Below are positions 8,005 to 8,500 of a DNA stretch of 64,000 nucleotides, piece by piece. The notes under the pieces are model-generated. The model ran no database searches, was not told the DNA's origin, and saw only the letters and a list, made by a program, of their open reading frames with translations. How positions within the stretch are numbered: the stretch's first letter is position 1; every line of letters begins with the position of its first letter. Both the position numbers and the translations under genes were made by a program. The stretch lies in sequence record NC_070985.1; one strand, 5' to 3'. This DNA comes from Escherichia phage O18-011.

Positions 8005-8355
8005 ATGCAAAACACGTTAAGTGATAACTTAGGGTTTATCATTTTCTCAGCTCTTGTGTTCTTTGGTGGTATGAAGTTTAACGAGTACCAAACAGATAGC
8101 AGTAATCTAGACAAAGAGAAGCATCAGCAAGAGTTGGAGATTGAAAGAAGTAGGGCAGCTGATGAAGTTGCCCAGAGAGTTCTTACCGGTTTATCTAGCT
8201 GGAAGAAGAACACGGAAACCGTTTATAAAGAGATGCATTATGAGAAAACTAAACCAGTTTTTTATAATGTCTGCGCTAGCGATGAGTTTGTCAGCCTGTT
8301 CAATGAGCGACAACAGCAGGCAATCAATGCCCTTACCAACAAACCTAAAAGCTGA
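8005..8355 (+). CDS. i-spanin-like (Rz-like) membrane protein
   Basis: N-terminal TM helix GFIIFSALVFFGG then charged coiled-coil-like region; contains an overlapped lipoprotein gene in another frame. Confidence 0.45.
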   Translation: MQNTLSDNLGFIIFSALVFFGGMKFNEYQTDSSNLDKEKHQQELEIERSRAADEVAQRVLTGLSSWKKNTETVYKEMHYEKTKPVFYNVCASDEFVSLFNERQQQAINALTNKPKS

Positions 8356-8500
8356 GTGTAGGGTTGACCTACCTCTTTTAGAGAGTGCTCAAGGAAAGGC
8401 ACTAGCCACTACGTTGGAGTGGTATCAGGACCAGTACACAGAATGTGCTGCTAATCACAATGGATTGTTAGAAGCTCTGAAAGAGCGTGGAATAGAATAA
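8240..8500 (+). CDS. o-spanin-like (Rz1-like) outer-membrane lipoprotein, overlapped with 8005-8355
   Basis: [20 protein letters not shown]: basic n-region, hydrophobic core, lipobox LSAC; starts inside previous gene in a different frame. Confidence 0.45.

Follow-up and report, generated by a model that had tools for sequence, protein, structure and literature searches.

Two overlapping open reading frames (ORFs), here called ORF A and ORF B, lie directly upstream of the sigma-factor gene of Escherichia phage O18-011, and the locus raises the question of whether a pair situated so far from the phage lysozyme gene codes for a spanin. We examined it in a 64,000-nucleotide (nt) stretch of sequence record NC_070985.1, referred to as the window in the rest of the text. 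The initial annotation of the window, made from the letters alone, had read ORF A and ORF B as the genes of an i-spanin and an o-spanin. That reading held: the family assignment, the anatomy of both proteins, a published census and the annotation of a related phage all point to an overlapped gene pair that encodes the two-component spanin of this phiEco32-like (Kuravirus) phage, an assignment that we give a probability of about 0.9. The pair is already known, having been catalogued in 2018 and annotated in public genomes, and its assignment as a spanin is bioinformatic, here as in the literature.

Sequence families and anatomy of the predicted spanin pair

The window comes from an E. coli podophage of the phiEco32-like type (Kuravirus, Gordonclarkvirinae). 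Over positions 7000-10500, 97 phage records were matched, and the identity to phages 172-1 and NJ01 was 95.6%; the relatives infect E. coli and Shigella. For detailed comparison we used 13 related loci with 46-98% protein identity, ranging from phiEco32 (97% for the i-spanin) to an 88-kilobase (kb) contig from IMG/VR (46% for the i-spanin and 53% for the o-spanin). Twelve of these loci are uninterrupted; in the thirteenth, Bas86, an insertion splits the overlap.

The product of ORF A matched phrog_1152, labelled 'Rz-like spanin', over residues 3-116 with an expect value (E) of 1.4e-36. For ORF B the match was to phrog_2425 (E 3.1e-26), with a weak second one to phrog_456 'Rz-like spanin' (E 2e-3). 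A tblastn search with the i-spanin gave matches in 428 phage records, Felix O1-like phages (myoviruses) among them, and several of the Felix O1-like records have an i-spanin/o-spanin pair annotated beneath the match. The i-spanin is 97% identical to that of phiEco32 and 93% to that of NJ01, and the o-spanin shows 94-98% identity to those of NJ01 and phiEco32. In their census of spanins, Kongari et al. (2018, PMC6139136) placed phiEco32, NJ01, KBNP1711 and ECBP2 in the 'JH2' i-spanin family, and the same four phages make up their 'NJ01' o-spanin family. The O18-011 proteins belong to these sequence families (JH2/PHROG 1152 and NJ01/PHROG 2425). The supplement of the census (PMC6139136) lists the pairs as 'ovl', with i-spanins of 115-116 amino acids (aa), o-spanins of 86 aa (67 aa when mature) and overlaps of 115-116 nt; the ribosome sites and start codons given there match those of O18-011, and the printed NJ01 o-spanin is near-identical. 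For phage Paul, the best-curated relative, RefSeq (YP_010674353.1 / YP_010674352.1) annotates the same terminator and ribosome sites, a 351-nt 'Rz-like spanin' and a 261-nt 'o-spanin'.

As the initial annotation had proposed, ORF A codes for a 116-aa protein with an N-terminal transmembrane (TM) helix and a charged body. Hydrophobicity peaks at residues 9-23 (Table 1), and the RefSeq note for phage Paul gives a TMpred domain at residues 8-23 of its i-spanin. The periplasmic part is 31% charged (D/E/K/R) and contains a single Cys (C90). A low-confidence, single-sequence AlphaFold2 (AF2) model has helices at residues 4-20, 34-76 and 93-111, and the census table for phiEco32 gives helix for 61% of the i-spanin periplasmic domain and 46% of the o-spanin (PMC6139136). 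The i-spanin is accordingly small, with a single N-terminal TM domain, and is predicted to be a type II inner-membrane protein whose periplasmic domain is mainly helical.

ORF B begins in the +1 frame within ORF A and runs 145 nt beyond the stop codon of A. Of the 'embedded/overlapped' architecture that had been put forward, the overlapped form is therefore the one that applies, and the o-spanin gene is adjacent to the i-spanin gene, downstream and in +1. The lipoprotein signal and the lipobox LSAC noted earlier in this second frame were recovered by a regular-expression match and are conserved in 12 relatives. The signal peptide has a positively charged n-region, a hydrophobic core and a lipobox that satisfies a PROSITE-style rule for signal peptidase II; the +2 residue is Ser, hence there is no Asp retention signal. 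For the o-spanin of phage Paul, the start codon of which is equivalent to 8240, the record notes a LipoP SpII score of 18.0 and cleavage between residues 19 and 20. The mature protein of 67 aa holds 3 Pro without a proline run, and Cys at positions 1, 21 and 50, and the low-confidence AF2 model places a helix at the C-terminus (residues 50-82), after a disordered linker. Both AF2 models were built from single sequences, with mean predicted local distance difference test (pLDDT) scores of 56 and 59, and were used for secondary structure alone. When all six frames of the 64 kb were scanned with a PROSITE-like lipobox rule, ORF B was the only credible lipoprotein ORF; the other hits were either proteins whose N-terminus does not resemble a signal or antisense fragments within large genes.

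Table 1. Features of the spanin locus and of the holin-endolysin region, in window coordinates.
Feature	Position	Strand	Description
Candidate gp36 promoter	7130-7139	+	GTAATGTATA; 65-67 nt upstream of gene 40; kept at that distance in 13 loci
Terminator-like hairpin	7969-7991	+	AGCCACC-TTCG-GGTGGCT then TTTTT; between gene 40 and i-spanin gene
Shine-Dalgarno GGAG of i-spanin	7996-7999	+	6 nt 5' of ATG; kept in relatives; ribosome-binding site annotated in phage Paul
i-spanin gene (ORF A)	8005-8355	+	116 aa, ATG start; homologue of phiEco32 gp39
N-terminal TM helix codons	8029-8073	+	Residues 9-23, LGFIIFSALVFFGGM; Kyte-Doolittle maximum 2.25 over 15 residues
Weak Shine-Dalgarno GAG (within AAAGAG)	8230-8232	+	7 nt 5' of o-spanin ATG, inside i-spanin gene
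o-spanin gene (ORF B)	8240-8500	+	86 aa, ATG start; full-length form of phiEco32 gp38
Signal peptide (type II) and lipidated Cys	8240-8299	+	Cys codon 8297-8299; lipobox LSAC, cleavage before Cys; regular-expression match
Dual-coding overlap, 116 nt	8240-8355	+	Frame 0: last 38 i-spanin codons; frame +1: o-spanin signal peptide and N-terminal linker
Sigma-factor gene	8500-9144	+	phrog_1740
Tail-fibre-like gene	26710-27513		Downstream of endolysin; Gp10_C domain
Endolysin	27526-28017	-	163 aa, T4-lysozyme-type; PF00959 E 8e-32; phrog_7 E 2.6e-46
Holin	28046-28264	-	72 aa; phrog_11161 E 6e-50; one hydrophobic stretch by eye
735-aa ORF	28358-30565		Upstream of holin

Dual coding and the start of the o-spanin gene

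Neither frame is broken anywhere along its length in the 12 uninterrupted relatives, and the o-spanin ATG is kept together with its AAGAG/AAGGAG site (AAGGAG in the distant contig L009); start codons upstream of this ATG are not conserved. The lipobox takes the forms LSAC, MSAC, TSAC, MSSC or TSSC, always with the Cys. C90 of the i-spanin and C21 and C50 of the mature o-spanin are invariant in 13 sequences, and both proteins thus carry periplasmic Cys for intermolecular disulfides. Among divergent relatives, conservation peaks in the overlap, which has 74-91% nucleotide identity compared to 47-76% for the single-coded flanks, and the fraction of variable third positions in frame A is 0.36 in the overlap compared to 0.67-0.76 in the flanks. 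The 145-nt segment coded by B only varies by 0.44/0.15/0.76 at codon positions 1/2/3 of frame B, which reads as a normal coding signature in B's own frame. The third-position suppression in the overlap, this codon pattern and the conservation of the ORFs, the lipobox and the Cys residues together show that purifying selection acts on both frames throughout the lineage.

ORFs in an alternative frame within genes are common in mechanical ORF lists, and ORF B might have been a non-coding by-product of gene A and of the composition of the downstream spacer, with A the only gene. The variation by codon position past A's stop speaks against this explanation, as do the full-length conservation of ORF B in 88 of the 107 matching phage records and its match to a family of its own, phrog_2425, and we give it almost no credence.

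A second alternative concerns the start codon. In most deposited Kuravirus genomes the o-spanin is either 'hypothetical' or a 57-aa ORF that begins at the equivalent of 8327 and has no signal peptide or lipobox, and this internal Met (MPLPTNL...) is the start chosen by gene callers in Bas92, IMEP8, LAMP, IME267, Ptacy1479 and others. If the shorter ORF alone were translated, its product would be soluble and the lipobox fortuitous. We consider this highly improbable, because the 29 codons upstream are open in every uninterrupted relative, with ATG and ribosome site conserved, because signal-peptide character and the invariant lipobox Cys persist even at 53% identity, and because no purine-rich ribosome site precedes 8327. 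Furthermore, Kongari et al. describe wrong or missing o-spanin starts as a frequent annotation error, with 64 wrong and 196 unannotated, and explicitly corrected these genomes (PMC6139136), and in Bas86 and Bas87 a disrupted signal peptide is replaced by a new complete lipoprotein one. The conserved ATG at 8240 is the correct o-spanin start, and in this respect the coordinates of the initial annotation improve on most database entries. The GAG ribosome element together with the 8240 start is the identical choice made in the 2018 census (PMC6139136), and the element is also marked in phage Paul.

The event in Bas86 (PQ850622.1, L010 1778-2352) and Bas87 (PQ850594.1, L018) lies outside the O18-011 window and is mildly new. 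Both phages carry an insertion of about 515 nt with an HNH endonuclease ORF in the spanin overlap, flanked by a 30-nt direct duplication. The original o-spanin signal peptide is cut by a stop, and both proteins are intact as separate genes: the i-spanin has 113 aa and a new tail (..AAEALKLKN*), and the o-spanin has 88 aa with a new complete lipoprotein signal peptide, MLTKKKQKSCLVILLASSLM followed by AC, whose codons lie at the 3' end of the insert, in a frame other than that of the HNH gene. GenBank gives the i-spanin as a joined (intron-containing) coding sequence. Against Rfam, the Bas86 insertion matched no intron model, of group I or any other kind, at E <= 1, and the 'join' is thus unsupported though not disproved. 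In EK010 and PAS59 the match to the o-spanin starts only at residue 24, and the two may share this insertion. The event is possibly of interest for the evolution of overlapping genes and homing endonucleases.

Neighbouring genes, lysis partners and expression

Gene 40, the spanin genes and the sigma-factor gene follow one another in this order in every Kuravirus/Suseptimavirus relative examined, as well as in the contig with 46-53% spanin identity. The initial annotation had called the position of the pair unusual. Its distance from the lysozyme gene is real, but the conserved order makes it a trait of the lineage and not an oddity of O18-011, and precedents exist: T4 pseT.3/pseT.2 sit between alc and pseT, away from holin gene t and endolysin gene e according to Kongari et al. 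(PMC6139136), and the spanins of Proteus phage Privateer lie about 12 kb from the endolysin. As for the neighbours named at the outset, the sigma-factor gene is supported by its phrog_1740 match, and the label of single-stranded DNA-binding protein (SSB) for the product of gene 40 (gp40, 7200-7946) rests on one relative's annotation ('ssDNA-binding protein') and on an acidic C-terminus. This tail reads ..DDNDSPF in O18-011 and ..EEDDSPF or ..EEDESPF in relatives, and resembles SSB C-terminal tips. Searches with gp40 gave no Pfam match, no PDB sequence match and a single sub-cut-off match in NCBIfam, to the phage replication-initiation family NF046043 (24.7 bits, far under the cut-off of 75).

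On the other side, the o-spanin stop overlaps the sigma start in the sequence TAATG (8498-8502). Phage Paul has a macro-domain (Appr-1-p processing) gene between its o-spanin and sigma genes; in O18-011 this gene is missing, so that stop and start overlap. O18-011 is also without the GTP-binding-protein gene found downstream of the sigma gene in IMEP8, Paul and others. An 89-aa 'dNMP kinase' ORF in 9141-9410 matches only the C-terminal half (89-176 of 176) of phrog_26149, and the same half-length ORF is present in phages LAMP and Bas92.

The lysozyme gene at the position given in the initial annotation was confirmed by its match to PF00959 on the minus strand. This endolysin has no N-terminal membrane segment and is thus of the soluble kind, and a holin gene lies directly upstream. 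Both are 19 kb from the spanin pair and stand among tail genes within the late structural operon, with no separate lysis cassette. O18-011 therefore combines a holin and an endolysin with a Gram-negative host, and with this holin and a soluble endolysin encoded away from the pair, a spanin function is needed. The lysis set of holin, endolysin and spanin is thereby complete in a phage of Kuravirus, a group that features in phage-therapy collections; the importance of the pair is limited mainly to the correct annotation of the o-spanin start.

A terminator-like hairpin precedes the i-spanin gene. It has a 7-bp stem with 5 G-C pairs, a TTCG loop and a T5 run, ends 10 nt before the i-spanin ribosome site, is kept in all 13 Kuravirus/Suseptimavirus loci and is the annotated terminator of phage Paul. 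Transcripts of the spanin genes must therefore either continue past it or begin at another site. For gp36, itself a middle-phase product, the promoter consensus is AATGTA centred at -11.5 (PMC12276001). A candidate of this type, GTAATGTATA, is presumably the source of a transcript over gene 40, the spanins and the sigma gene; the window holds 5 gp36 motifs, a number not above chance (3.0 +/- 1.8). A second motif, TAATGTAT, stands on the minus strand at 7061-7068, about 70 nt from GTAATGTATA, with no minus-strand gene after it. The hairpin suggests attenuated read-through into the spanin and sigma genes. With GTAATGTATA upstream, the hairpin before the i-spanin gene and the o-spanin stop overlapping the sigma start, the spanins are probably made at a reduced level by read-through, along with the sigma factor and well before lysis. 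A sigma-70 promoter-like match at 8240-8268 was discounted, the scan having given 4 matches in total compared to 6.2 expected from shuffled sequence. Neither the paper by Guzina and Djordjevic nor the phage Paul announcement mentions phiEco32 promoters or lysis genes.

Several observations weigh against a spanin. Neither protein matched the Pfam models Rz (PF03245) or Rz1 (PF06085) at E <= 1, NCBIfam and Pfam searches with both proteins gave no meaningful match, and in BLASTP comparison with T4 PseT.3/PseT.2 the two i-spanins aligned at E = 1.0 only and the two o-spanins did not align. The AF2 models of both proteins are of low confidence (mean pLDDT 56-59). The N-terminal cytoplasmic stub of the i-spanin, MQNTLSDN, carries no positive charge, so that an N-in topology breaks the positive-inside rule; the curators of the 2018 census flagged the same lack of charge, and coiled-coil prediction was negative for the phiEco32 i-spanin and positive for that of NJ01 (Kongari et al., PMC6139136). 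In addition, no experimental test of the pair or of its two sequence families was found in the literature searched.

A pair with a non-lysis role in the envelope, for example a lipoprotein for superinfection exclusion or receptor masking (T5 Llp, Cor-like) produced early along with a small membrane protein, the outer membrane being disrupted otherwise, would be compatible with the location in the middle-gene region, where the genes abut the sigma gene far from holin and endolysin, with the lack of similarity to validated spanins and of experimental data found on the pair, and with a mature lipoprotein that is not Pro-rich. On this last ground the initial annotation had raised a different envelope function. 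The composition was described correctly (3 Pro in 67 residues), but it is no argument against a spanin, because a proline-rich region is absent from the T4 o-spanin family and the o-spanins of the Jersey family are predicted to be helical (Kongari et al., PMC6139136). Moreover, phrog_1152 is found in Felix O1-like, Erwinia and other phages, several records of which annotate an i-/o-spanin pair, the overlap, the protein sizes, the helix content and the periplasmic Cys fit the operational spanin definition (Summer 2007, Kongari 2018), the 64 kb contain no other spanin candidate, and the validated spanins of T4, likewise without a proline-rich region in their family, are also unlinked. A dedicated envelope pair is thus unlikely, and a spanin remains our preferred reading.

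Proposed mode of action and comparison with known spanins

Following the paradigms of lambda Rz/Rz1 and T4 PseT.3/PseT.2, the A protein would sit in the inner membrane and extend its C-terminal domain into the periplasm, and the B protein, once lipidated, would be targeted to the outer membrane and reside in its inner leaflet. The pair would be transcribed with gene 40 and the sigma gene from a gp36-type promoter in the middle phase, by read-through of the hairpin. A and B would bind each other via their periplasmic domains, the conserved Cys forming intermolecular disulfides, and the resulting complexes would span the periplasm, threaded through the peptidoglycan mesh and inert while the wall is intact. 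After holin triggering and the breakdown of the peptidoglycan by the endolysin, the complexes would be free to cluster, change conformation and fuse the inner and outer membranes, thereby removing the last barrier to release. Since such a device acts only when the wall is gone, early production would be harmless. Because the pair abuts the sigma gene and is probably a middle-phase product behind a conserved terminator, the complex may also serve an earlier envelope function, such as a superinfection block or envelope stabilisation, besides or instead of lysis, although we hold this to be very unlikely.

The closest known systems are the pairs of phiEco32, NJ01, KBNP1711, ECBP2 and Paul, which share with O18-011 the genes, their sizes, the overlap, the Shine-Dalgarno sequences, the starts, the lipobox position and the neighbours. 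Protein identity of the O18-011 pair is 93-98% to phiEco32 and NJ01, 82-92% to KBNP1711 and 78-81% to ECBP2. The proteins differ by strain-level substitutions only, for example LSAC in the lipobox of O18-011 instead of the MSAC of phiEco32 and NJ01. The Felix O1-like (Ounavirinae) pair is more distant: its i-spanin also belongs to phrog_1152, with 30-35% identity, the genes are overlapped too, and the Felix O1-type o-spanin family phrog_4180 cross-matches phrog_2425 (E 1e-6). In contrast to O18-011, these phages are myoviruses, their pair lies near a putative lysin gene and a polynucleotide kinase gene, and their o-spanins form a separate family in Kongari et al. (PMC6139136).

With T4 PseT.3/PseT.2 (117 and 83 aa; Kongari et al., PMC6139136) the O18-011 pair shares its approximate protein sizes, a location away from holin and endolysin, an o-spanin with a predicted helix and no proline-rich region, and conserved Cys, which are functionally important in T4. 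The T4 genes differ in their 'separated' arrangement and in belonging to PHROGs 739 and 812. A distant kinship with T4, for which the equal sizes and the polynucleotide-kinase neighbour in Felix O1-like phages had been considered, was dropped given the absence of similarity and the different PHROGs. In the Felix O1-like phage adrianh (L014 2211-4469) the spanin pair stands two genes downstream of the polynucleotide kinase gene, and the unrelated pseT.3/pseT.2 of T4 (L015 6003-7782) are likewise beside the polynucleotide kinase gene pseT; this shared neighbourhood may be a coincidence or may be conserved.

LysB/LysC are part of the lysis cassette of phage P2, and Summer et al. (2007, J Mol Biol) reportedly accepted them as Rz/Rz1 equivalents. 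The census lists LysB/LysC as 'ovl', with the o-spanin in a separate 'P2' family (Kongari et al., PMC6139136).

The likeness to lambda Rz/Rz1, the prototype defined by experiment, lies in the presumed mechanism and topology, with an inner-membrane protein that has an N-terminal TM domain and a helical periplasmic domain, an outer-membrane lipoprotein, periplasmic Cys and an o-spanin in the +1 frame. Lambda Rz1 is fully embedded, lies within the lysis cassette and has a proline-rich, unstructured mature form, whereas the O18-011 genes are overlapped and unlinked, and the mature o-spanin has few Pro residues and a predicted C-terminal helix. The pair falls outside the class delimited by the lambda Rz/Rz1 Pfam models and a proline-rich o-spanin. 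By this comparison, the O18-011 pair would be a functional analogue of Rz/Rz1 and of the T4 spanins and not a member of their families.

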